Made by a program: the position numbers and the translations under genes
In this document: one piece after another, positions 2,532 to 63,581 of the stretch
How the letters are laid out: the number at the start of each line of letters is the position of its first letter
Numbering within the stretch: position 1 is the first letter of the stretch
The notes under the pieces: generated by a model
Told to the model about the DNA's origin: nothing
Database searches by the model: none
The model's input: the letters and a program-made list of their open reading frames with translations, nothing else
IMG/VR virus record: IMGVR_UViG_3300033149_003715
Coordinates: 80,174-144,173 of that record
Source: a virus
DNA: 64,000 bases
Strand: one strand, 5' to 3'

Positions 2532-3099
2532 CTTGATAGTGTTTTCTAAGTTTTCTTATGGCTTTTTTGTATGTATATTCGACAGCAGACTTGGTTATAC
2601 CAAATTTTGCACCAATGGCTTGAAATGTTAGGTTATCAACGTGATACATATGTACATATTGGCGTTCTCGTGTGGTTAATAGTTGGGATTGTAATAATTC
2701 CTCAATAGTTTCTTGCTTAATGATATGATCTAATGGTGTTTTGTTCTGAATAAATGTAAAATGATAATTGTTTGGTTGAACATCTTTGCAATTAAAGTAA
2801 TTATGTATAATTTTTTTAAGTACCCAATATACTTTTTGGTACCTATAAGCAGATTTGGTTGTATTATTACAACGTTTTTCTTCCCATGTCCAATCCGCCA
2901 TCATAATTGCCGTAGCTACATTACCCACAATATCATCACTATTTAACATAATATTTCTTAAGTATGAGCAATGCTTTGTAGTAAAATAATTAATACATCG
3001 TCTTGATAAATTCAAATATATTGATAAGGGCTCAAATTCATCATTTGTTTTGGTGGGTTTAGATTTACGTGGATTTTTTATGGCAGTTAAATCAATCAT
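2515..3099 (-). CDS. sigma-70-like factor / region-4 HTH protein
   Basis: C-terminal LTTRERQYVHMYH...LTFQAIGAKFGITKSAVE...AIRKLR resembles sigma region 4. Confidence 0.7.
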   Translation of the reverse strand: MIDLTAIKNPRKSKPTKTNDEFEPLSIYLNLSRRCINYFTTKHCSYLRNIMLNSDDIVGNVATAIMMADWTWEEKRCNNTTKSAYRYQKVYWVLKKIIHNYFNCKDVQPNNYHFTFIQNKTPLDHIIKQETIEELLQSQLLTTRERQYVHMYHVDNLTFQAIGAKFGITKSAVEYTYKKAIRKLRKHYQDEIHS

Positions 3100-3103
3100 A
3101 TAT

Positions 3104-3298
3104 TTATCTTTTGTGTGTTTTTGTTTTATTTCTGATTCTTTCTATTTCAATCATTAGACCTTTTTCAATTATAGCCGACGATGTTGGTGAACATTGTAGT
3201 TTTTCAGCTTCAGATAAAGCCCAATCTGGAACTTTACCGTTTGGCCAAATACCAGTAGTTTTTAATGTTTTGATGTCATCGTATTCACTCATTATCAT
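3104..3298 (-). CDS. hypothetical protein
   Basis: 64-aa ORF with AGGAG RBS. Confidence 0.6.
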   Translation of the reverse strand: MIMSEYDDIKTLKTTGIWPNGKVPDWALSEAEKLQCSPTSSAIIEKGLMIEIERIRNKTKTHKR

Positions 3299-41130: not shown

Positions 41131-42546
41131 TTACTGTAGACTTCTTTGTCTGATTGTATCGAATTTTTGAGTGACTAATAATCGTCCATTACGATATACC
41201 TCCACTAATTTATTTATGTGCTGGGGTAGATAGTCATAATTTACTGTCTTAAAACATTTTTCGTCGTCCGCATAAATAAGCCTCAATCGTCCCTTTTTTG
41301 ATTGTTTATTTTTGTCTTTAGGTCGTTTAGATATATCATGCCATGTATTACATCTTTTTTGTGCTGAACATTTGAAGGCGAAAGCTTGGGTGTCTCTGTT
41401 AATTTTTTGTAGTAATCCGCCACCCATACCAAATACTAGGCTTTCTACTGAGAATTTGTTTTCTACAACGATTTTACATATTTCTGTGATAGTATTTACA
41501 CTCAAACCATCTCCCCATAACACACCTACAACTGGATTTATTACAGTATACCCTTTGGAATTAACATGATATCCAAACGTATTTGCCAATTGTTTTAATA
41601 TCCAGACTATTTGCTTACCTGGATGTTTGTGTTGTTGTGTTATACTATCTGGTCTAATAACCACTTTAGCTATACCAGATTTGTTTGCTTTTCTGTTAAT
41701 TATTTGCTGTTTGAATTTGGGTATAATGTTTTCCACAAAGTTATAAATATCATACGAATCCGCGACTATACTTAGAATTCCATTCGGGTATTTTTGGAGC
41801 AATTCGTTAACTAACGTTACTTCTCCTTGATGATCGTATGATGTCATTATTGAGTGTTCGGTTGCGGGGACACTAAAACCTAATGTTTTTGGATCAGCTT
41901 GGTAATATTCTATACCTTCTAATAGGGCTGGAACTGTATCGGTTCCTTTGAAATTAATTAAGTGTGCTAATCCACCTAAACTTGCAGATTCATTAGAGCT
42001 TACACCACGATAACCAAAATCGTGAAGCATAAAATCTAAACACTGTGTTTGTTCTGACGATATATTAAGATATTCAGCCAGTGTTCTTTTAGTGTAATAA
42101 CTAATAGTAGCTACAGTTGATGGATACCATACATGTGTTAGCAAAGATTCCACAAAATTAGTTAACCAATAACATTTTGGATCTGTATTTTCCACTGTCA
42201 TCATTACATTATTAATATCAACTGGCGTACCTTCTGGCACTGCCTTGATTGATAGTGGTAAATACCCATTGTGCTTTTTAACTATATGCAACCAGCCATC
42301 TTCGTTGAATAAATTTTGTCCAAAATGATTTTGGATAATTGTTTTGGCCACTGTAATTTTTTCTCGCGTGACTCTCCTTCCTACCATATTTTTAAGTAAA
42401 ATAGATTGTAAACCAAAAAAAACAGTTTTTGGATATTTTGCCCATTTTCTACATTCTAAGTAGGAATAAATTGTCCGTGTGTTTTTTGGGTACATTTTGT
42501 AATGAGCAAATTTGTAACTATCCGATAATAAACAGATATTATCCAT
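41131..42546 (-). CDS. nicotinamide phosphoribosyltransferase-like enzyme (NAMPT/NadV or Namat-like)
   Basis: DSYK..H..MYP, FFGLQ, AVPEGT, WYPSTVAT, LHDFGYRG, GTDT, SVPATEHS, SIVADSYD, VIRPDSI, WGDG, FGMGGGLLQ..NRD. Confidence 0.93.
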   Translation of the reverse strand: MDNICLLSDSYKFAHYKMYPKNTRTIYSYLECRKWAKYPKTVFFGLQSILLKNMVGRRVTREKITVAKTIIQNHFGQNLFNEDGWLHIVKKHNGYLPLSIKAVPEGTPVDINNVMMTVENTDPKCYWLTNFVESLLTHVWYPSTVATISYYTKRTLAEYLNISSEQTQCLDFMLHDFGYRGVSSNESASLGGLAHLINFKGTDTVPALLEGIEYYQADPKTLGFSVPATEHSIMTSYDHQGEVTLVNELLQKYPNGILSIVADSYDIYNFVENIIPKFKQQIINRKANKSGIAKVVIRPDSITQQHKHPGKQIVWILKQLANTFGYHVNSKGYTVINPVVGVLWGDGLSVNTITEICKIVVENKFSVESLVFGMGGGLLQKINRDTQAFAFKCSAQKRCNTWHDISKRPKDKNKQSKKGRLRLIYADDEKCFKTVNYDYLPQHINKLVEVYRNGRLLVTQKFDTIRQRSLQ

Positions 42547-43494: not shown

Positions 43495-44379
43495 TTACTT
43501 CTGTGTAAGTTGTTGTGTTAATTTTTGGAAATATTTTTTAAATATAATTGCCGTTTGACGATTTATTTCTTTTTCTACAGGCTTAGACCAAGCAATTTCA
43601 CCTCTTGCTTCTCGTTTAATGTCTTCGCACATACTGATTAGAATTTCCCTCATATTTTCAATACTTGGCGGCTGCTGGTTTTTTGAATGAATTTTATCTA
43701 AAACGTGTTTTAATCTGTTTATTGTGACCCATTCTGTTGCTATATCTTGAGCTTGTTTAAGAACTTCTAATTTTTTAGGATCTTTAATTTGCCGTTTCTT
43801 TTTTGTTTCTCGGAAGTCGTCATTTTTATACTTTGCAATTACTCGTTCATTATTATTTTTCCTTAATTCAATAAGAGGGCGAATAACAATTCCTTCTCGG
43901 GTTTGATTGTGGTTACCTGCCCATTCTGCTACAACAGATGGTTTATCTCGTTCTTCTGTAAGAATATCTAAATCAGTAGAACATTTTATATATGGGACAA
44001 ATGTAAGCCCACATCTTTTTACTATTTTTTCGGCTGTAGGAACATCTAACCAGCAATCACCTATTTTTACATCAAAGGCAATAAATTTTAGGTTACTACC
44101 ATACTTTTTTGATTGACCTTGTACTTTTCCACCATATCCTTCGCCGTAGATTATAATATCATCTACTTTAGGTAAATTAGCTAAAATTTCTTCTTGGTTG
44201 AATAAATTGGTGAAGTTTTCGTGTTTAATACAGCCAGAGAAAAATGATAACTGTGGTTGTCTTGTTACTTTATACTTTATATGTGTGCTTGTACCATCCA
44301 CCTTCTCCAGAGCGTACACTTCCTTAAATAGTAAAACTTCTTGAGCTTTATATAAATTATTTATATGTAAGTAACCCAT
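43495..44379 (-). CDS. ATP-dependent RNA ligase (Rnl2-like)
   Basis: Motif I EKVDGT, YGEGYG, FIAFDV, REGIVIRP, IAKYK; start at MGYLH. Confidence 0.85.
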   Translation of the reverse strand: MGYLHINNLYKAQEVLLFKEVYALEKVDGTSTHIKYKVTRQPQLSFFSGCIKHENFTNLFNQEEILANLPKVDDIIIYGEGYGGKVQGQSKKYGSNLKFIAFDVKIGDCWLDVPTAEKIVKRCGLTFVPYIKCSTDLDILTEERDKPSVVAEWAGNHNQTREGIVIRPLIELRKNNNERVIAKYKNDDFRETKKKRQIKDPKKLEVLKQAQDIATEWVTINRLKHVLDKIHSKNQQPPSIENMREILISMCEDIKREARGEIAWSKPVEKEINRQTAIIFKKYFQKLTQQLTQK

Positions 44380-44555
44380 TACTGTTTCCTCAAAAGACTT
44401 TTTGGAAATTTCCAATAATACTCACATTTTTTGGTTGATTTGTCATATGGTGGTGCAATAAAATATGATTGGTATTTACTTGGTTTAATTAAATATCGAA
44501 GACAACTTTCTTTGTGTGGACAATCTTTTCCATAACACATGGTAATATCAGGCAT
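44379..44555 (-). CDS. small Cys-rich phage protein
   Basis: Hand translation MPDITMCYGKDCPHKESCLRY...CEYYW (58 aa). Confidence 0.7.
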   Translation of the reverse strand: MPDITMCYGKDCPHKESCLRYLIKPSKYQSYFIAPPYDKSTKKCEYYWKFPKSLLRKQ

Positions 44556-46281: not shown

Positions 46282-46791
46282 TCATCCTAAATCGTAAACG
46301 GTCCATACGATATTTGTATCACCAAATGCGAATTCGATACATTCTTGAATATTTTCCCATTTACCTCCAGCTAAACCGCAACCAAATCTTGGACTATGTA
46401 GAGATACTTGATGTTGTATTTTGGTAGTATTTAAATGTAAACGTAAACGGATTAATCCTTCTTTGATTGCTTCATATCTAATAGGAGGAATTATAATTCT
46501 GTTAAATCGAAGTGGTTTGATATTTTTTTGTCCTATTAAATTGCATACGAATTGCGTTAGTGTTGGTGATTTGTGTACTTGTATAAGTTGTATATCTCCT
46601 AGCTTTTGACGATCTATGTTGGCTTGATATGTTAATTTAGTTTGTGGCCATTTTTTAGCCAAAGGAATTACAAAACCTGCACCCCATGCTCCAATATCAT
46701 TACAACAGTGTACAATAATTTGTTGTTCGTATCCGTTGGGGTAAACACGGATTGGGTTTGTTGCATCACCTTTAACGGTTTGTAGTTTCAT
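46282..46791 (-). CDS. macrodomain (ADP-ribose processing) protein
   Basis: VKGDAT, HCCNDIGAWGAGF...LAKKWP, PRFGCGLAGGKW. Confidence 0.9.
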   Translation of the reverse strand: MKLQTVKGDATNPIRVYPNGYEQQIIVHCCNDIGAWGAGFVIPLAKKWPQTKLTYQANIDRQKLGDIQLIQVHKSPTLTQFVCNLIGQKNIKPLRFNRIIIPPIRYEAIKEGLIRLRLHLNTTKIQHQVSLHSPRFGCGLAGGKWENIQECIEFAFGDTNIVWTVYDLG

Positions 46792-46968: not shown

Positions 46969-47259
46969 TTAGGAGTTGTCTAAAATTTTGATTGGTTCGT
47001 CTTCTGTTGGAATATGTTGCTTTGTTTTTTTGCACCAATCCAAATATTCAGCATCTGGATTTTCTAAACGATAAATAGAACCGCTTTTCGTGTAAATAAC
47101 ATTTCCTTTCACTTTGGTAACTGTCGATGTTTGTATGAAACTGCCATTGTTAAATTCTGGGTGATTGTAAACATTACCTTTTAAGTAAATTTTATGACAT
47201 TCTGGTGGAGTATACGGATTACTATCACTAAAAACCGCCCAATTTTTTAGTACAAACAT
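46969..47259 (-). CDS. conserved phage hypothetical protein
   Basis: NW....PY.PPE....L.G.VY.HP.F..G..I.TS....T.SGS.Y.L; start at MFVLK. Confidence 0.7.
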   Translation of the reverse strand: MFVLKNWAVFSDSNPYTPPECHKIYLKGNVYNHPEFNNGSFIQTSTVTKVKGNVIYTKSGSIYRLENPDAEYLDWCKKTKQHIPTEDEPIKILDNS

Positions 47260-47298
47260 AAGAATTCTCCCTATTTTTAGAGGAAAAGAAAAATAGAT

Positions 47299-47387
47299 TG
47301 GACTACGGGGAATCGAACCCCACGGAGTTACCATCCGCAATTATTTATACTCCCACAAGTTTATAAGACTTGCTGCGGCTATAGTCC
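47299..47387 (-). ncRNA. atypical tRNA-like RNA with UAU (Ile) anticodon and no canonical D arm
   Basis: GGACTA/TAGTCC acceptor, CAAGT-CTTATAA-ACTTG anticodon arm, TGGGG-TTCGATT-CCCCG T arm, long extra arm. Confidence 0.7.
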
Positions 47388-47403
47388 AAGTTTGCTGTTT
47401 GGG

Positions 47404-47787
47404 TTAAGTAATTTCTCGTGTAAGTTTTACGGCATCTACCTGATATGTACCTTTTGGAGTAGGCATCCTTGTTAGGGGCATTTTTTGCTTTTGGTGTCTT
47501 GATGTCCAGAAATCTTCCAAAAATAGATTGCAACTACAAACAACAAGTGCTTTGCGTGGGTTTTTAACTTCACACTCGAAAAGACGATATTGTGTAGAAA
47601 TAATATTTTGACTTTGCTGAAGTAGTTTAATTTGTTTTATATCATTAAACACGAAAAGTTTTGAGTATTTAAGAACTGGTTTAACCCACTTATTTATTAT
47701 ATATTGTACGCAAAATCTATTCCCAGTATTATTAATAGATTTAAGTTGTAAGTCAGTAACTTTATAAAATTTTTTCATTATTACCAT
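47404..47787 (-). CDS. family A paralog
   Basis: Shared motif set (KYSKLFVF subgroup). Confidence 0.85.
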   Translation of the reverse strand: MVIMKKFYKVTDLQLKSINNTGNRFCVQYIINKWVKPVLKYSKLFVFNDIKQIKLLQQSQNIISTQYRLFECEVKNPRKALVVCSCNLFLEDFWTSRHQKQKMPLTRMPTPKGTYQVDAVKLTREIT

Positions 47788-48922: not shown

Positions 48923-50182
48923 TTATGTTAAAACTACGGGTAATCTTTTGTATTTAGAAGCCCCTTTTGGTCTTAATATTACATCCCCCTGTTGATACCA
49001 ATTTGCCCCATTTTCATCATCTATTTGATTTTCTGTTAATCCATTACGAAAGTTTAACGCTTGATAAACAGTTTCACACTCATTTGGAACACCTTCTACA
49101 TGCCAAATACCTATTGATGGATTTTGCATCTTCAAAAATTTCCAAATTCTTCCTTTTACGTCTAATTCCAGCAGTGTATATTTTCCACCAATTGGAGCTT
49201 CCCAAACATCTATTTCTTTTGCTCCTAATGAATAACAAAGTCTTTCCATACCTATTTTTCTAACAAACTCTCTTCTAATTTCAGCGTTTTCGATATCAAA
49301 CAGTTTTATTGGATTTAATTCAGAGCTAGTTTGCATTGCCAACCATTCAGGAACACGAACTCCGTTTAAGGCGAAAATTTTCCAAGATCCTTCGTAATCT
49401 AAGGCTGGCCCACCATGACAATGAAGCCCAAATTCATTTGTGTGTAGGGTACTTGGTTTTGGCGTGAATAAGACTAGATTTTCAAATGGCCACCACCATC
49501 CAACGTGTAAAGAAAGTTCGTATAGAGGTGCTAGTTTGTGTGTAGGCTGTATACCACACACCCTAAGAAAATCAAAAAATGATAACCATAAAGCATCTTG
49601 TGATCCACGGCCACATGCATGAATTTGTTTATGAATTTGTTTTTTGATTTGGATTTTATCTTGATTCCATATTTCGTTTGGAACACAATACCCAGTTTGT
49701 ATTTTAATTTGGGTCCGAACTCGATTTTCAATTTGGGATTTTATTCGATACCAAGTATGATTTTCGATTTGATATCCAATTTGTCCTATAATTTGTTTTG
49801 TAAGTTGGTTCCAAATATGATCCCAAATTTTATTTTTGACTTGATTCCAAATTTGGCTTCTAATTTGATATGGTGTTTGGTTCCAATCTTTTTTTCCAAT
49901 CTGACTACTAATATAGTTCCAAATCTGATTTCCGGTGTGGTATTTCATTTGAGTTAAAAAATAGGCACCCCAAACACCATGATAAGGAGAATCTAACCAA
50001 ACTTGAGTAGTTGGAGCTTGTAAGCCTACCATTCGATAAGTAGCTTTAACTGCTTTCCAAGCAACTTTTTTGTTACCTGGAGTTGTAGAAAAACCTATTT
50101 TTAACCATTTATCCCTATGTTTTGGGACCTGTTGTTGAATTAATTGGGCTATCATACAACTTCCTTTAAGGAGAATCATCAA
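48923..50182 (-). CDS. DUF6745-like protein with Q/W-rich repeats
   Basis: W..IG.ST, WLDSP, QIWNQ repeats, GWWWPFE, LHC.GGPAL.Y, NAEIRR. Confidence 0.8.
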   Translation of the reverse strand: MMILLKGSCMIAQLIQQQVPKHRDKWLKIGFSTTPGNKKVAWKAVKATYRMVGLQAPTTQVWLDSPYHGVWGAYFLTQMKYHTGNQIWNYISSQIGKKDWNQTPYQIRSQIWNQVKNKIWDHIWNQLTKQIIGQIGYQIENHTWYRIKSQIENRVRTQIKIQTGYCVPNEIWNQDKIQIKKQIHKQIHACGRGSQDALWLSFFDFLRVCGIQPTHKLAPLYELSLHVGWWWPFENLVLFTPKPSTLHTNEFGLHCHGGPALDYEGSWKIFALNGVRVPEWLAMQTSSELNPIKLFDIENAEIRREFVRKIGMERLCYSLGAKEIDVWEAPIGGKYTLLELDVKGRIWKFLKMQNPSIGIWHVEGVPNECETVYQALNFRNGLTENQIDDENGANWYQQGDVILRPKGASKYKRLPVVLT

Positions 50183-57225: not shown

Positions 57226-57515
57226 TTTTTATCCTTTTGTTCTGGAACTAATTACATAAGAGAAAAAACTGTGTTGTGTTGACTAAACTATTCCCGGCAG
57301 GTATATTTTTATTGAAATAACAATTATTAATGCGTTTTTTGACTTTGGAACTAATTTAGGTATCAAACTACCTATTTTCCTTTTGAGAATAATTTTTGCC
57401 CTTAAAAATATTAACGACAAGATTCTAGGGCATATTTACAGGGTGATTGTGACCTATTTTGGTCGTGTGTGAGTTCACCGGATTAGTTTAGCTACTATTT
57501 TCCGGTGATTTTGCC

Positions 57516-57956
57516 CTAAGAGATGTTTTCAGGGCAAGGAGAGAAGATTTTGCAGACTTCAATTAGAAGTTTCCAGATCTTTTTCATTACAGATTTGTCC
57601 CCTAACGGGACTAGATCTGGATATAAGTCTGCCACTTCACGCAATCTTTTTTGAATTGCGTTTTTTAATTTCGCATCTTTGACAACTTGAACATGAATAT
57701 CTGTATCTTTATGTATATATACAGTAGCTATTAGTGGATCTGTTCTATATGTAGAACCAGATGTTTCTACAAATCCCAATTTTTTCAAAAACTCGTGTGT
57801 ATTGGAACAATCTTGAGTAAAAAAGTCCCAATCCGATCTTTCGCCATATGTACCAAAGAATCTGCTGCCAGTTAGGTAAAATTCTATTGGACTACTTTCC
57901 AATTTATTGATAACTTCCATCGTTTGCGGTTTTCTTGAATTGATGATCGTCATCAC
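57516..57956 (-). CDS. minimal Pol-beta-type nucleotidyltransferase
   Basis: FYLTGSRFFG....SDWDFF. Confidence 0.8.
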   Translation of the reverse strand: MMTIINSRKPQTMEVINKLESSPIEFYLTGSRFFGTYGERSDWDFFTQDCSNTHEFLKKLGFVETSGSTYRTDPLIATVYIHKDTDIHVQVVKDAKLKNAIQKRLREVADLYPDLVPLGDKSVMKKIWKLLIEVCKIFSPCPENIS

Positions 57957-58099
57957 TTCTCCTTTTTAATTAAGGTTGTCGGCAGATATATTTTGTTAAA
58001 ATAACAATATTTGTGACCTGAGGGAATTCACCGGATTAGTTTAGTTACTATTTTCCGGTGATTTTGCCCTAGAAGAGTTGGGTGGGCAAGAGTGGCACA

Positions 58100-58519
58100 T
58101 TAAGGCCAATTTTGACAGAATTTTATTAAGAGTTTCCAGATCTTTGACATTTCACGCTTGTTCTTTAATGGAACTAGATCTGGATCTAAATCTGCCACAT
58201 AACGCAATCTTTCTTGGACTGCGTTTTTTAATTCTACATCTTTGACGATTTGAACGTGAATATTTGCTTCTGTGTGCATGTATATAGTGTCTATTAGTGG
58301 GTCTGTTTCATATGTAGAATCGGATGTTTTCACAAATCCTATATTTTTCAAAAAGTTGCGTGCATCGAGAGAATCTAATGTAAAGAAATCCCAATCTGAA
58401 TTTTCATCGTGTGTGCTAAAAAATCTACTTCCAGTCAAATAAAACTTTATTGGACTGTTTTCGAGTTTTCTAATGATTTCCAATATTTGTGGCATTTTTG
58501 AATTAGCAATTACCATCAC
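58100..58519 (-). CDS. minimal nucleotidyltransferase paralog
   Basis: FYLTGSRFF....SDWDFF. Confidence 0.8.
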   Translation of the reverse strand: MMVIANSKMPQILEIIRKLENSPIKFYLTGSRFFSTHDENSDWDFFTLDSLDARNFLKNIGFVKTSDSTYETDPLIDTIYMHTEANIHVQIVKDVELKNAVQERLRYVADLDPDLVPLKNKREMSKIWKLLIKFCQNWP

Positions 58520-58561
58520 TTGTCCTTTCTTAATTTGGACTATTCCACTGGGTTAGTTTAG

Positions 58562-58960
58562 TTAGTATGTTTTGATTTTTTCGAGCAATTTTACAGATTT
58601 GACGGCGATTGTGCCGGGAGGAATTTCTTTATTTTTCCAGTTGTAGCGAAGTGGGCGTTTGTGTTGTGCTTTTCTTTTAGCGATTTCTTTTAATCTATCA
58701 ATATTTCCCGTGAAAGGAATTTTTAGGAATCTACCCTTGGTGTGGACTTTATAAATATGAACTGAACAATAATTATGTTTTTCTAAAAATTTGCAAGCAT
58801 CATCAAATGTTTTGAATACAAATAGTGGAGTATATGGTATTCTAGGATATACCCACTCATTTTCTTTGTATTGAATTGCTGCTTCATGCATAGTTCCAAA
58901 TATCTGACGAATACACAAAGAATACATATCTTTTGTTACAATTTTGTAGTAAATTTTCAT
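58562..58960 (-). CDS. family A paralog
   Basis: Shared motif set. Confidence 0.8.
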   Translation of the reverse strand: MKIYYKIVTKDMYSLCIRQIFGTMHEAAIQYKENEWVYPRIPYTPLFVFKTFDDACKFLEKHNYCSVHIYKVHTKGRFLKIPFTGNIDRLKEIAKRKAQHKRPLRYNWKNKEIPPGTIAVKSVKLLEKIKTY

Positions 58961-59035
58961 TGCGTGGGTTCCTAATTTGTGGTTTTAGTAAAAAACATCG
59001 TGTGTGCAAATTGGGCAATCTTTCGTCGGGTTAGT

Positions 59036-59470
59036 TTAGTCAATGTGTTTTGATTTTCGGTCAAATAACCTAATGCAAACGTCCCACATTTTTTTTGTTT
59101 TTGTTTTGCCGTCGAGAAATGTGAATTTTGGATATATTTTCTTTAAGTACAATAGTCTTTTTTGGAGGTAAATTTTGATGTCAACAGTTGTCAATAGTTG
59201 CACGTAAATATTGCCCGCTTGATGTACAAATACCGATTTTACAAATGGATCATCATAGTAAGGTAATATGGATGTTTTCTTGAATCTTAAAGATTTCAAA
59301 AATTGACATGTTTCCGGAGTGTATTTTGCAAACAAATCCCATCGAGGTGAATGATGAGTGTTATCGAAAAACTTTTCACCTATCAGGTAGAATTTTATGT
59401 AACAATTTGTTAACTGCTCAAGAAGATAATCAGATATTAGGTTTGTGGTGTTGGTACCCAAAATAAGCAT
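59036..59470 (-). CDS. nucleotidyltransferase paralog with degenerate active site
   Basis: FYLIGEKFF...PRWDLF: GS and the first Asp are lost. Confidence 0.7.
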   Translation of the reverse strand: MLILGTNTTNLISDYLLEQLTNCYIKFYLIGEKFFDNTHHSPRWDLFAKYTPETCQFLKSLRFKKTSILPYYDDPFVKSVFVHQAGNIYVQLLTTVDIKIYLQKRLLYLKKIYPKFTFLDGKTKTKKMWDVCIRLFDRKSKHID

Positions 59471-59508
59471 CGTAAATCCTTTTTTGAATTAGAATGATGA
59501 AATGTTAC

Positions 59509-59775
59509 TTACTTGGTGGATCCAGTTACTATTTCGTAGATTTTTTTGCACAAATTATGCGTAATGCCATCGGCAAAGAGTTTCAGTAGTGCAATTGTCT
59601 CCCTTTTGCTGTATCCCTCGATTTTGGGATATTCGCCGTTTTCGATGCTGTACATTAGACTTTTTGTTAAAGCATCTATTTTTTTTGTTACAATTGTATC
59701 GGATGGGATTTGAATGGCAAGTTCTTCCAGCAAATTGTGGAATATTTTCGTGCAATCTTTTGGGTTTTCTTGCAT
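59509..59775 (-). CDS. hypothetical protein
   Basis: 88-aa ORF with AAGGA RBS. Confidence 0.6.
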   Translation of the reverse strand: MQENPKDCTKIFHNLLEELAIQIPSDTIVTKKIDALTKSLMYSIENGEYPKIEGYSKRETIALLKLFADGITHNLCKKIYEIVTGSTK

Positions 59776-59882
59776 GATTTGTTCCTTTTTGGTTTAGTAA
59801 ACCCTTTTGAGTAATTTGATCGAAAAAATAAAAACGGCGTTTGCAGAAATCCTTTTTGAACTAAAGAATTTTTTGTTATGAT

Positions 59883-60299
59883 TTACGTTATTTTTTGCAT
59901 ATAGAAAAACAGATTTGTCATCGCTTTCCAGACTAGATGTCTATAACATTTGGGAAGATATGTCCAAAAATTTGGATGCTTTTTTGTTGTTTCCAACAGG
60001 CTATTTTGAATATGTTCTTTTATGCGTGCGTTTTTGACACATTGCACGTGAATATTTGCTTGCTTGTGTGCATAAACTATGTTTGTTAACATATCAAAGT
60101 AGTGGTATTTGTTTTCTTCAACAAATCCCCAATTTTCTAGCACTTTTCTAATTTGTGGTGAATCTTCTACGAAGAAATCCCAATCCGAATTTTCGTGGTG
60201 TGTACCGAAGAACCTACTTCCAGTCAGGAAAAACTTGAAGTTGCTGTTTTCCATTTCCGTAATGGTGTAAACAGTTGAATTTACCTTACAAATGATCAT
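59883..60299 (-). CDS. minimal nucleotidyltransferase paralog
   Basis: FFLTGSRFFG...SDWDFF. Confidence 0.8.
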   Translation of the reverse strand: MIICKVNSTVYTITEMENSNFKFFLTGSRFFGTHHENSDWDFFVEDSPQIRKVLENWGFVEENKYHYFDMLTNIVYAHKQANIHVQCVKNARIKEHIQNSLLETTKKHPNFWTYLPKCYRHLVWKAMTNLFFYMQKIT

Positions 60300-60351
60300 G
60301 ATTCACTCCATTTTAGTTTGGGGTTGAACAAACAAACATAGACTATGCAAA

Positions 60352-60425
60352 TGAGAACGGTGGGATTTGAACCCACGATCTTCGGATTAAAAGTCCGATG
60401 CTTTACCAGACTAAGCTACGTTCCC
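60352..60425 (-). tRNA. tRNA-Lys(UUU), copy 1
   Basis: GGGAACG acceptor, TCGGA-CTTTTAA-TCCGA, GTTCAAATC. Confidence 0.95.
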
Positions 60426-60578
60426 ATTTCCTTATAAAACACACCAGGGTAGTTTAGTTAATTCACACCAATTTTGGTTGAATTTCCTAAACACCCTGGG
60501 CTTTGTTATCTAATCCCACCAGACTTCTCTGAAGTGGGATTGTTTGTTTTTTCCTCTTGGGTTACGTTCTTGCTGTTT

Positions 60579-60995
60579 TTATATGCTTCCTCGCATATAG
60601 TAAGCAAATTCTATCATTGTTTGCCAAAGTTCATATTCCCGTTTTTTGGAAATGTTTTTGAAGAAGGATGGGTGTTTTTTGCTTGTTACTAGTAAGCTGT
60701 TTTGAACATGTTCTTTTACGTGTATATCCTTGACACATTGCACGTGTACGTTGGCACTTTGATGTACGTACACTTTGCTCGTTAACCCATCGGAATATGA
60801 GTTTTTCTCTTCAGTGAAGCCTAAATTTTCAAGTTCTTTTCTGACTTCCGGACAATCCGCTACGTAAAAATCCCAGTCGGAATTCACCGTGTACGTGCCG
60901 AAAAATCTGCTTCCGGTTAGGTAGTAGTTTGCTTGACTTTGTGCCATCTTGTTGAAGATGCTTTCAAACGAGTTTTCCGGGCTGATCAATGTCAT
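60579..60995 (-). CDS. minimal nucleotidyltransferase paralog
   Basis: YYLTGSRFFG...SDWDFY. Confidence 0.8.
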   Translation of the reverse strand: MTLISPENSFESIFNKMAQSQANYYLTGSRFFGTYTVNSDWDFYVADCPEVRKELENLGFTEEKNSYSDGLTSKVYVHQSANVHVQCVKDIHVKEHVQNSLLVTSKKHPSFFKNISKKREYELWQTMIEFAYYMRGSI

Positions 60996-61047
60996 GATCT
61001 ACTCCTCTTTAGTTAGGGACTGAACGAGTAAACACAAACTATACAAA

Positions 61048-61121
61048 TGAGAACGGTGGGATTTGAACCCACGATCTTCGGATTAAAAGTCCGATGCTTT
61101 ACCAGACTAAGCTACGTTCTC
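61048..61121 (-). tRNA. tRNA-Lys(UUU), copy 2
   Basis: Identical to copy 1 except acceptor position 2 (GAGAACG). Confidence 0.95.
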
Positions 61122-61571: not shown

Positions 61572-61838
61572 TTAGTTAGGGACTGAACGAGTAAACACCG
61601 ATTTGTTTGTGTGTGTACGAACACAACGTTTCTGCCCACAAATCTTGAAAAATCTGTGGTCAAAACAATAAACCCCGGCAATTTTTGTACCGTTGTTTTT
61701 ATGTTTTGTTTTGTTTTCAAAAAAGAGTTGGGCAGATTCTACGGAAAAGTTGTTGGGAGTGTTGAAGATAATGAAGTAAGGTTCTCTAGTTTGGAGAACA
61801 TACTGGGCGACGATTTTTTCTGCTTTTTGAATTGTCAC
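61572..61838 (-). CDS. hypothetical protein
   Basis: 88-aa ORF, GTG start. Confidence 0.5.
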   Translation of the reverse strand: MTIQKAEKIVAQYVLQTREPYFIIFNTPNNFSVESAQLFFENKTKHKNNGTKIAGVYCFDHRFFKICGQKRCVRTHTNKSVFTRSVPN

Positions 61839-61900
61839 TGGTTAAATCCTGTAAATTTTCGATTTTTTCCAAATATTGGAATAATCCTCCCAAGAAGAAT

Positions 61901-62350
61901 TTAGCCCAAGTTATCACCCATTGATTCCCAATATTTTGTGTCATGTATTAGATTCAAAGCCATTTGCCAAAGTTCTCGTTTGTTTTGTTTAGACAAGTAG
62001 TTTAGCATACCAGTTTTTTTGTTGAGTTCGAGCAAATTGTCTTTGATGAGCGTTTTTGCACCAACATTGTTCACACATTGGATATGCACATCGGCTTCTT
62101 TGTGTACGTACACTTGATTTGTTAGTGAGTCCAACAAATAAGCTGGACTGTTTTCGAGAACAAATCCCCAACTTTCAAGTTCTTTTCTGACTTCTGGACA
62201 ATCTTCCGTGTAAAAATCCCAATCAGAATCTTTTGTGTGGGTATCGAAAAACCTGCTTCCGGTAAGATAAAAGTTTTTGTTGCTGTTGTTCATTTGATCG
62301 AAAATATGATTGATTGTATCACAGGTTTTATGCATGTCAATCAATGTCAT
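61901..62350 (-). CDS. minimal nucleotidyltransferase paralog
   Basis: FYLTGSRFFD...SDWDFY. Confidence 0.8.
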   Translation of the reverse strand: MTLIDMHKTCDTINHIFDQMNNSNKNFYLTGSRFFDTHTKDSDWDFYTEDCPEVRKELESWGFVLENSPAYLLDSLTNQVYVHKEADVHIQCVNNVGAKTLIKDNLLELNKKTGMLNYLSKQNKRELWQMALNLIHDTKYWESMGDNLG

Positions 62351-62657
62351 AATCTACTCCTTTTTGGTGATTTGGTAAGTTAACAAAAAACTTTTCACCT
62401 GGCTTTGTATTTGGGCTGACTATCTACGCGGCTAGTTTACCTAAATCACCCAGTTTGTGTTTTGTGTTTAATTATCCTGGTTTGTGCAAATTGCCCATTT
62501 TATCCAGTTTCCCAGGATTGCGTAGTTTATCTGTTTTACCCAGTTTTCCAGGGTTATGTAATTTATCCAAGTTATTTATTGTACCTATTTTATTTTAGGT
62601 TATATTATTTCAATATAGGTACAATAGATAATTTGGGTAATTTGTTTTTTGCCCATT

Positions 62658-62686
62658 AAAAAACCCCCCCGAATAACCGGGGGGGT
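62658..62686 (-). terminator. rho-independent terminator
   Basis: ACCCCCCCG-GTTATT-CGGGGGGGT followed by a T run, just after the 62706..63242 stop. Confidence 0.85.
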
Positions 62687-62705
62687 AGGTTGGCCAAGCA
62701 GTTAG

Positions 62706-63242
62706 CTACTCGGCTTCGTTAAACAGTTGATTGCGGAGATCATCAAGGTCGATATCCGCACCTACTGGCGTCGGCAATGCTGCTGCAAGGGTTTGAAGGT
62801 CGTGAGTGGAAGACGATTTTCCACGGCCATGGGAACGGGGGATGTCGAGGTGATACAAGATCTTTTTTCCGTGTTTGAGAATTTCTTCCTCCTCTTTCTT
62901 CCCCTCTTCGGGGGTGATTTCCTCCGCCGTGATTCTCCGTTTTACGTCCATGAGTTTCGTCCTGCAATCCATCTTCACTTGCTCTTGCAGGGCTCTCACA
63001 CTGTTATACGCTTTGTTGAGATCCCAAGGCGTTCGTCGCGGTTGATCCTTTGCGAATTGTGCGTTAACTGTTAACGCCACCTCCTCGCAGGTTCCTTTGG
63101 CTTGCTTTACTTTGCCGCAGATCCCCAATAGGGTGAGGGTTTCTTTCCCCACTGGCAGTACGAGAAACCTTTGCCTTTTCTTGGTGGTTGGGGAAGCGAT
63201 TTCAACGGGAGTCGTTGAAGCCAATACGTTTTTGTTGCTCAT
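62706..63242 (-). CDS. hypothetical protein (higher GC than neighbours)
   Basis: 178-aa ORF with GGAGG RBS and downstream terminator. Confidence 0.75.
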   Translation of the reverse strand: MSNKNVLASTTPVEIASPTTKKRQRFLVLPVGKETLTLLGICGKVKQAKGTCEEVALTVNAQFAKDQPRRTPWDLNKAYNSVRALQEQVKMDCRTKLMDVKRRITAEEITPEEGKKEEEEILKHGKKILYHLDIPRSHGRGKSSSTHDLQTLAAALPTPVGADIDLDDLRNQLFNEAE

Positions 63243-63284
63243 TGTGAGCCCTCCAACTAGGGGTAAATGGGAAACGAAAAGTAG

Positions 63285-63581
63285 TTAGTTGTTTTCTGCG
63301 GTTTCTTCCATGATTTCTCTTTGTAGGCGTTGCCAATCAGCCAATTCATTCTCACAAAGTTTTTCAACTCCAACCGTGAAAGTGACAAATACAGATGTTA
63401 GCTCATTAAAGTCTAACAGGTGTAATATGGGGATTTCTCCGTTCCATATTTTACACCTGAGTTGCCTTGCCCCTTCCGCAACGTCTGAAGCATTATAGTG
63501 ATCTAGGTTACCCGGAAAAATCGCTTTAATGAGAGTTTTCAGGGCATTTGTTACGTTTTTGTTTTGGATACTCAAACTCAC
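63285..63581 (-). CDS. hypothetical protein
   Basis: 98-aa ORF with GGAGG RBS. Confidence 0.65.
   Translation of the reverse strand: MSLSIQNKNVTNALKTLIKAIFPGNLDHYNASDVAEGARQLRCKIWNGEIPILHLLDFNELTSVFVTFTVGVEKLCENELADWQRLQREIMEETAENN

Follow-up and report, generated by a model that had tools for sequence, protein, structure and literature searches.

The stretch of DNA analysed here, referred to as the window, comprises 64,000 nucleotides (positions 80,174 to 144,173) of the IMG/VR virus record IMGVR_UViG_3300033149_003715, a complete virus genome of 144,173 bp with direct terminal repeats and a G+C content of ∼30%. On the minus strand of the window, at 47298-47388, lies an intergenic 91-nt RNA gene whose product resembles a transfer RNA (tRNA) with the anticodon UAU and appears to contain a D stem in which the order of the two strands is permuted. 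The gene is located between the stop of a 127-aa open reading frame (ORF; 47404-47787) and the start of a 96-aa ORF (46969-47259), is co-oriented with these flanking genes and occurs once in the record.

Several features of the RNA are typical of tRNAs, namely an acceptor/T branch of 12 bp, a T loop that conforms to UUCRANU and a 7-nt anticodon loop with U33, in which A37 and A38 are also present as in ordinary tRNAs. Only 7 nt (AG and CCGCA), however, separate the acceptor and anticodon stems, and the D hairpin is absent from this position. The complement of CCGCA, UGCGG, is found 3′ of the anticodon arm, within a loop that is closed by pairing of GGAGU with ACUCC; the CCGCA/UGCGG pairing is termed S1 and the GGAGU/ACUCC helix S2 (Table 1). 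A preliminary description of this DNA had assigned acceptor, anticodon and T arms, together with CCGCA, UGCGG and GGAGU/ACUCC, to the minus strand, and all of these, in the sequence quoted there, were located as claimed. The anticodon arm CAAGU-CUUAUAA-ACUUG is among them, with a stem that extends to 6 bp as GCAAGU/ACUUGU. The bounds originally given, 47299-47387, are correct for the core but not for the ends, as the acceptor stem contains an extra pair, U47388-A47299 (C-G in the homolog on contig L198, see below). Similarly, the discriminator is indeed an A, but it is A47298 rather than A47299. The term ‘D-armless', by which the RNA had been described, is a misnomer, as both strands of the D stem are present, in permuted order. 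The 12-bp branch is divided 8 + 4. Although a 7/5 division is also possible in this sequence alone, it is excluded by the homologs in L198 and L018, where it would place U.C or U.U at 49:65.

Table 1. Segments of the 91-nt RNA gene in 5′ to 3′ order along the RNA, followed by neighbouring genes discussed in the text. Positions refer to the window.
Feature	Position	Strand	Remarks
Acceptor stem, 5′ strand UGGACUAU (8 nt)	47381-47388	-	Pairs with 47299-47306
Connector AG (2 nt)	47379-47380	-	From the sequence; varies among relatives
S1a CCGCA	47374-47378	-	Pairs with 47335-47339; abuts the anticodon stem directly
Anticodon arm, 6-bp stem, loop CUUAUAA	47355-47373	-	Anticodon UAU at 47363-47365
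Spacer G between anticodon arm and S2a		-	From the sequence
S2a GGAGU, 5′ strand of variable-arm-like helix	47349-47353	-	Pairs with 47324-47328
Linker AUAAAUAAU (9 nt, A/U-rich) between S2a and S1b	47340-47348	-	Read from the sequence
S1b UGCGG	47335-47339	-	Pairs with S1a; lies 3′ of the anticodon arm
D-loop-like AUGGUA (6 nt)	47329-47334	-	Holds GG
S2b ACUCC, 3′ strand of variable-arm-like helix	47324-47328	-	Pairs with S2a
Spacer GU between S2b and T arm		-	From the sequence
T arm GGGG, loop UUCGAUU, CCCC	47307-47321	-	Stem of 4 bp
Acceptor stem, 3′ strand GUAGUCCA	47299-47306	-	Pairs with UGGACUAU
Discriminator A73	47298	-	No CCA encoded after it
Nicotinamide phosphoribosyltransferase	41131-42546	-	
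RNA ligase	43495-44415	-	
Polynucleotide kinase/phosphatase-type phosphatase	46282-46791	-	
Two tRNA-Lys(UUU) genes	60351-61121	-	Nearly identical

In the window, ARAGORN and the Rfam tRNA model call Thr-UGU, Leu-UAA and two Lys-UUU genes, all four of them ordinary tRNAs. The 91-nt gene was not called by ARAGORN at default settings, a check suggested in the preliminary description, and did not match RF00005 at the gathering score. The homologs in L198 and L018 are likewise not called by the standard finders. Lowering the thresholds of ARAGORN, allowing introns or using its mitochondrial mode yielded only forced, mutually inconsistent and wrong models. If such RNAs are charged and used, phage tRNA inventories are under-counted, as standard finders miss the genes. 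The best Rfam match of the gene is tRNA-Sec (RF01852), with which it shares a long acceptor stem, a 6-bp anticodon stem and a long variable arm, the role in which S2 is aligned. At 33.3 bits, however, it does not reach the gathering score (47); its anticodon is UAU and not UCA, its branch contains 12 rather than 13 pairs, and 5 nt occupy the place of the 16-nt D-arm block of the model.

Evidence that the unusual pairings are maintained comes from a homolog at L198:6815-6905, on a 50.8-kb IMG/VR contig, which aligns with the gene over 91 nt without gaps and with 24 differences. Twenty of these represent ten pairs changed on both sides, and all ten are still standard pairs; five are in the acceptor stem (of 8), three in S1 (of 5), one in S2 (U-A to C-G) and one in the T stem. 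The remaining differences, a U-A to U.G change and three substitutions at unpaired positions, do not break any pair. Pairing in this comparison is 100%, compared with 37-45% after a shift of the partners by 1-3 columns. No protein within about 6 kb of the L198 locus is detectably shared with this phage, indicating that the conservation does not simply reflect recent common descent of the region.

Similarity searches for further relatives found almost nothing. BLAST of the element and its surrounding 3 kb, and of L198 and L200, returned no match in 50,697 phage records, and the flanking protein P0001 had no relative in IMG/VR or in a set of 5.8 billion proteins. A terminase search retrieved one fragment only, while a search with P0003 identified five loci; in the nearest (L002, 64% identity) synteny breaks down before the element is reached, and no tRNA-like match is present. 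The exact 23-nt 3′ pattern was not matched, and two close-relative patterns (the ATAAATAA linker, and S2b plus the T arm) recovered only L198 among real matches. The collections were therefore scanned for an order of motifs expected of a rewired tRNA alone, comprising the anticodon loop CTTATAA, then the D-loop-like TGGT and then, a few bases on, the T loop; a filter on the acceptor and T stems left about 46 distinct sequences. As the motifs and these two stems were selected for, their conservation, including that of the anticodon loop, carries no weight. Similarly, UGGU is invariant across the alignment of relatives, which has no independent weight because TGGT is in the search pattern. By contrast, S1, S2, the anticodon stem, the discriminator, the bases that follow it and the tertiary pair discussed below were not selected for. 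The scan of genome contigs gave mostly chance matches, with two real members, both in metagenome-assembled genomes.

The family comprises three groups, class A, class B and classes C/D, the last of which holds the 91-nt gene. Members of classes C/D mostly display an 8/4 branch, with an S1 of 5-6 bp, an anticodon stem of 5-6 bp, an S2 of 3-6 bp and an A-rich linker; in every relative of these classes the linker is A/U-rich and contains a run of A. In class D relatives a 6-bp S1 is followed by UGGU. The anticodon stem covaries across relatives. A profile built from ten relatives, from which the 91-nt gene and L198 were left out, detected the gene with nhmmer at E = 1.3e-13 as its sole match in the 144-kb genome. 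Conversely, a model constructed from the 91-nt gene and L198 (R2) scored the ten relatives at 33-57 bits and, over 1.15 Mb, produced no match to a canonical tRNA at E <= 0.001. A model of class A (R1) was not used as a membership test, as it gave 24 bits for the 91-nt gene against 21-32 bits for ordinary tRNAs. A genome search with an RNA model did not recover known members from the contigs that hold them, and its blank results were disregarded.

In 12 class C/D sequences, aligned with an S1-nested model, S1 is 96.9% paired and five of its six pairs are compensatory; the acceptor helix in the same set is 99% paired. As this alignment leans towards the model, RNAalifold was also run on a plain MAFFT alignment (A2), where it predicts, unaided, an S1 that encloses the anticodon arm. 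S1 and S2 cannot share one covariance model. An S2-nested model was dropped as it gave inconsistent columns for 3-bp S2 helices, and was replaced by a permutation test on 11 sequences in which the 8 nt that follow the anticodon stem were matched with the UGGU-to-T-stem stretch, and the best helix was scored for each sequence with itself and for chimeras of different sequences. The mean was 4.09 for self and 2.77 for chimeras, and 0/20000 permutations reached the observed value. The S2 helices that underlie this result are diverse in sequence (GGAGU/ACUCC, GAGA/UCUC, CUAGU/ACUAG, CCCAA/UUGGG, GGC/GCC and GAC/GUC). An unrestricted best-helix search, which had a high background and sometimes a shifted register (UAUCC/GGGUA), was set aside in favour of alignment-based counts and anchored windows. 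The covariation proposed as a check on CCGCA/UGCGG in the preliminary description is thus borne out, and its GGAGU/ACUCC arm is substantiated both by the compensatory pair in L198 and by the permutation test. Selection on S1 and S2 in the same molecules supports the view that the fold is a pseudoknot, in which CCGCA pairs with the UGCGG located within the GGAGU/ACUCC loop.

Class A members are 75-77 nt in length with a 7/5 branch and lack S2. Their segments are arranged in the order acceptor, UA, NNNN, C, anticodon arm, N-GAAA, NNNU, A-R-..GG..-A, CAY and T arm. In 18 class A sequences a 3-bp S1 joins the segment that precedes the anticodon stem to the one after GAAA; this helix is 100% paired, with compensatory changes at all three pairs. 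In addition, a purine two bases after S1 covaries perfectly with the pyrimidine before the T stem (nine A-U and nine G-C), a 15:48-like signature that would correspond to the Levitt pair of L-shaped tRNAs. None of 500 shuffles attained the observed values, and pairing fell from 99% to 34-52% when the partners were shifted by 1-3 columns. Class B contains an extra hairpin before the T arm, or an S2 of 3-4 bp.

Individual members display some variety in anticodon and setting. A gene at L116:3197-3283 (minus strand), inside a phage tRNA array, adopts the class D layout (8/4 branch, 6-bp S1 and short S2) with the Tyr anticodon GUA. In L105 one phage array on the minus strand contains a canonical tRNA-Ile(UAU) gene alongside a rewired UAU gene (2543-2616, 3142-3223), showing that the two forms do not exclude each other; a second match to model R1 is located at 2949-3027. 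The Streptomyces phage LilMartin (MT684590.1, ∼73463-73540; L275:1195-1272, plus strand) contains an unannotated class A member with the anticodon GAU, which scores 81.4 bits with model R1 and is located after two tRNA-Pro genes and a nucleotidyltransferase gene. The identical sequence is present in the phages MulchMansion, Angela and Coruscant and in the crAss-like phage cr130_1; in Coruscant it is overlapped by an annotated FtsK-like coding sequence. Cultured Streptomyces phages therefore carry unannotated members of the rewired tRNA family.

The arrangement of S1 and S2 suggests how a tRNA-like core could be assembled from permuted strands. In the proposed fold CCGCA (S1a) would stand in for the 3′ strand of the D stem (positions 22-26) and continue into the anticodon stem, while UGCGG (S1b) would take the place of the 5′ strand (positions 10-13) and be followed by a D loop containing GG. 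S2 would occupy the place of the long arm of class II tRNAs, and the A-rich linker would run back along this helix to reach S1; through S2b the strand would then pass to the T stem, entering it where the variable region normally ends. The pseudoknot formed by S1 and S2 may thereby stack the D stem on the anticodon stem, as in L-shaped tRNA, and bring the GG of AUGGUA next to the T loop, with which it is predicted to dock. In the 91-nt gene the 9-nt linker and the 6-nt D loop would have to be long enough to close the pseudoknot while the GG reaches the T loop. The 12-bp acceptor/T branch, A73, U33 and A37/A38 are all ordinary, so that the RNA could be a substrate for RNase P, the CCA-adding enzyme and a synthetase and be accepted by EF-Tu and the ribosome. 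An L-shaped fold, isoleucylation and a part in translation are inferred.

A role in translation is consistent with what is conserved in the family and with its genomic setting. The discriminator is A in all 46 family members, and in 17 of the 46 CCA is encoded directly after it, where less than one such case is expected by chance. Many relatives are co-directional members of phage tRNA arrays; in L185 the gene starts 8 nt after tRNA-Asn and ends 25 nt before tRNA-Cys, and in L018 a family member is found among Lys, Glu and Asn tRNA genes. AUA accounts for 32% of the isoleucine codons in this phage and, at 27 per 1000, is its 12th commonest codon. The four canonical phage tRNAs read AAA, UUA and ACA, which are also common A-ending codons. 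The gene fits the description of a codon-supply tRNA that would read AUA without lysidine, and an isoleucine identity combined with such a supply role is plausible. Taken as a whole, the sequence evidence indicates that the gene probably encodes a functional phage tRNA with a topologically permuted core, most likely one that accepts isoleucine and reads AUA via its UAU anticodon. There is also a small chance that the pseudoknotted, permuted core was selected for letting this AUA decoder evade host enzymes that recognize the ordinary D arm and elbow (anticodon nucleases or further defences directed at tRNA) without loss of acceptance by the synthetase, EF-Tu and the ribosome.

Several observations weigh against a functional, AUA-reading tRNA-Ile. 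In this phage the gene is solitary, between two small ORFs, and does not encode CCA. The identity determinants of E. coli isoleucyl-tRNA synthetase that are known in the acceptor and anticodon stems are not evident in the gene, and U34, if unmodified, could read AUG too. With one close homolog only, S2 is represented by a single short-range compensatory pair, and an alternative hairpin, AUGG/CCGU, in the minimum free energy fold competes with S2 in this sequence. Finally, six allo-tRNAs with the anticodon UAU, the nearest published relatives, were inactive in E. coli when assayed as amber (CUA) suppressors (PMC5389517).

The authors of that study suggested non-translational roles for the allo-tRNAs (PMC5389517), and the phage RNA might similarly act outside translation, either as a decoy or sponge for host tRNA nucleases or modification enzymes, or as an element like that proposed for allo-tRNA(UAU) near toxin-antitoxin genes. 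The RNA ligase, the Pnk-type phosphatase and the two nearby tRNA-Lys(UUU) genes encoded by the phage belong to a kit linked to anticodon-nuclease conflicts, and would suit such a function. A decoy, however, needs neither the universal A73, the CCA encoded in 17 members and the 12-bp branch nor a location in tight arrays, and the anticodon also corresponds to a frequent phage codon, making a non-translational RNA unlikely. Charging with serine, leucine or tyrosine through the variable-arm-like helix, such that AUA is partly recoded or mistranslated, is less probable still. The 8/4 branch, 6-bp anticodon stem and long extra arm are those of the allo-tRNAs, which are charged by SerRS whatever the anticodon, the same layout carries a Tyr anticodon in L116, and A73 suits leucine and tyrosine as well as isoleucine. 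Against this, the discriminator A differs from the G73/U73 of allo-tRNA-Ser, the loop of the extra arm is engaged in S1, and the sister classes without S2 share both the anticodon loop and A73; recoding would, in addition, be costly for a codon used at the frequency seen here.

The view that the RNA is a D-armless cloverleaf with a long variable arm, in which S2 forms and CCGCA/UGCGG is unused or in which S1 and S2 alternate, draws on the fact that the two helices necessarily cross when drawn and on the alignment of S2 as the variable arm by the Rfam tRNA-Sec model. It is nevertheless very improbable, as S1 contributes three of the ten compensatory pairs in the L198 comparison and covaries across all relatives, class A retains S1 without any S2, and S1 and S2 pass their tests in the same set of sequences. 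The rejection of the gene by standard tRNA finders would be expected of a decayed tRNA pseudogene or a chance resemblance. The changes in the helices relative to L198 are, however, compensatory and the family is conserved with covariation, so that this explanation can hardly be maintained; decay, which the preliminary description had named as the outcome if no homologs conserved the pairing and the RNA was neither expressed nor charged, is rejected on these grounds. A functional phage tRNA with a permuted core thus remains the favoured interpretation.

Comparison with known tRNAs shows which parts of such a molecule are familiar and which are not. UAU-anticodon tRNA-Ile is itself rare and is found in bacteria that lack TilS. 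The phage RNA shares with canonical tRNA-Ile (RF00005) the 12-bp acceptor/T branch, the T loop UUCGAUU, the 7-nt anticodon loop, U33, A37 A38 and A73, as well as a GG-containing D-loop sequence and, by inference in the phage RNA, a D stem stacked on the anticodon stem; the phage RNA would likewise supply an A-ending codon in an AT-rich phage. In contrast to the canonical molecule, the D arm begins with its 3′ strand, and its 5′ strand and D loop are placed beyond the anticodon arm, which generates a pseudoknot instead of a cloverleaf, and the branch is 8/4 rather than 7/5 with a 6-bp anticodon stem. Permuted tRNA genes are known from the red alga Cyanidioschyzon merolae, where the permutation is confined to the gene and processing yields a normal cloverleaf. 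The circularly permuted algal tRNAs and the phage RNA have in common a segment order that differs from the textbook; in the phage RNA, however, it is the mature molecule that would be internally permuted, between normal ends.

The closest published relatives of the 91-nt gene are the 8/4 allo-tRNAs with a UAU anticodon, which were found as false positives of tRNA-Sec searches and which carry UAU more often than any other anticodon (Mukai et al. 2017, PMC5389517). The allo-tRNAs derive from Acidobacteria, Clostridia and Proteobacteria, often near toxin-antitoxin genes, and contain a tRNA-Sec-like D hairpin (long stem and tetraloop) in the usual place together with G73 or U73 (PMC5389517). Both types of RNA have an 8/4 branch, a long anticodon stem, a long extra arm, a predominant UAU anticodon and a sub-threshold likeness to tRNA-Sec. 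Judged by the published descriptions, the phage RNA is set apart by the lack of the D hairpin, by A73 and by its occurrence in phage tRNA sets. The S1 of class D together with UGGU may be read as the D hairpin of an allo-tRNA opened on the 3′ side of the loop. The D-armless mitochondrial tRNAs of nematodes and other animals also lack a hairpin between the acceptor and anticodon stems, but in these the arm is truly lost and a short loop is present instead (PMC7609411). In the phage RNA, unlike the mitochondrial tRNAs, both strands of the D stem and the D-loop-like GG are kept, in a different location, and the strands covary.

Full-text literature searches yielded no account of a D arm whose two strands lie on either side of the anticodon arm. 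In reviews of tRNA structure the cloverleaf is the rule, and the exceptions are length variants (8/4, 9/3 and tRNA-Sec) and the loss of arms in mitochondria (including PMC7609411); a permuted strand order is described in none of the reviews searched. The data thus support a new structural variant of tRNA, with the 91-nt gene falling within its 8/4, extra-arm subclass. If the RNA is charged and used, the translation apparatus tolerates a pseudoknotted core, which would bear on how the shape of tRNA is recognized and on the design of orthogonal tRNAs. Seemingly empty isoleucine slots in phage tRNA sets may also be filled by rewired tRNAs.

The RNA ligase, the phosphatase, the nicotinamide phosphoribosyltransferase and the tRNA-Lys pair (Table 1) resemble a tRNA-repair kit directed against anticodon nucleases. 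Upstream of the 91-nt gene on the same strand, the N-terminal half of a 419-aa protein (48923-50182) contains many short IWNQ-like repeats; relatives of this protein occur in five IMG/VR contigs, and its sole match is PHROG 31813. A DnaE-like DNA polymerase is split into two minus-strand ORFs, G000 61645-63519 and 57409-60156 (L010, L009), and its nearest cultured relatives are ∼31% identical. In other contigs, a tRNA encoded at L023:8072-8169 (minus strand) and in L028 combines a normal D arm with a long variable arm, and its anticodon loop, CCUUAUAAA, is 9 nt in length; the Rfam tRNA model calls this tRNA at 38.9 bits. A recurrent conserved element, GGTGGCTAAAGTCGTAGTTGCGC...CTTATAA...GTGGTTCGATTCCAC, is present in marine contigs that include L012, L015, L019, L020, L024, L037 and L041. 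The member in L015 matched no Rfam family at the gathering score, and in this element the T arm is directly flanked by an acceptor-like stem.
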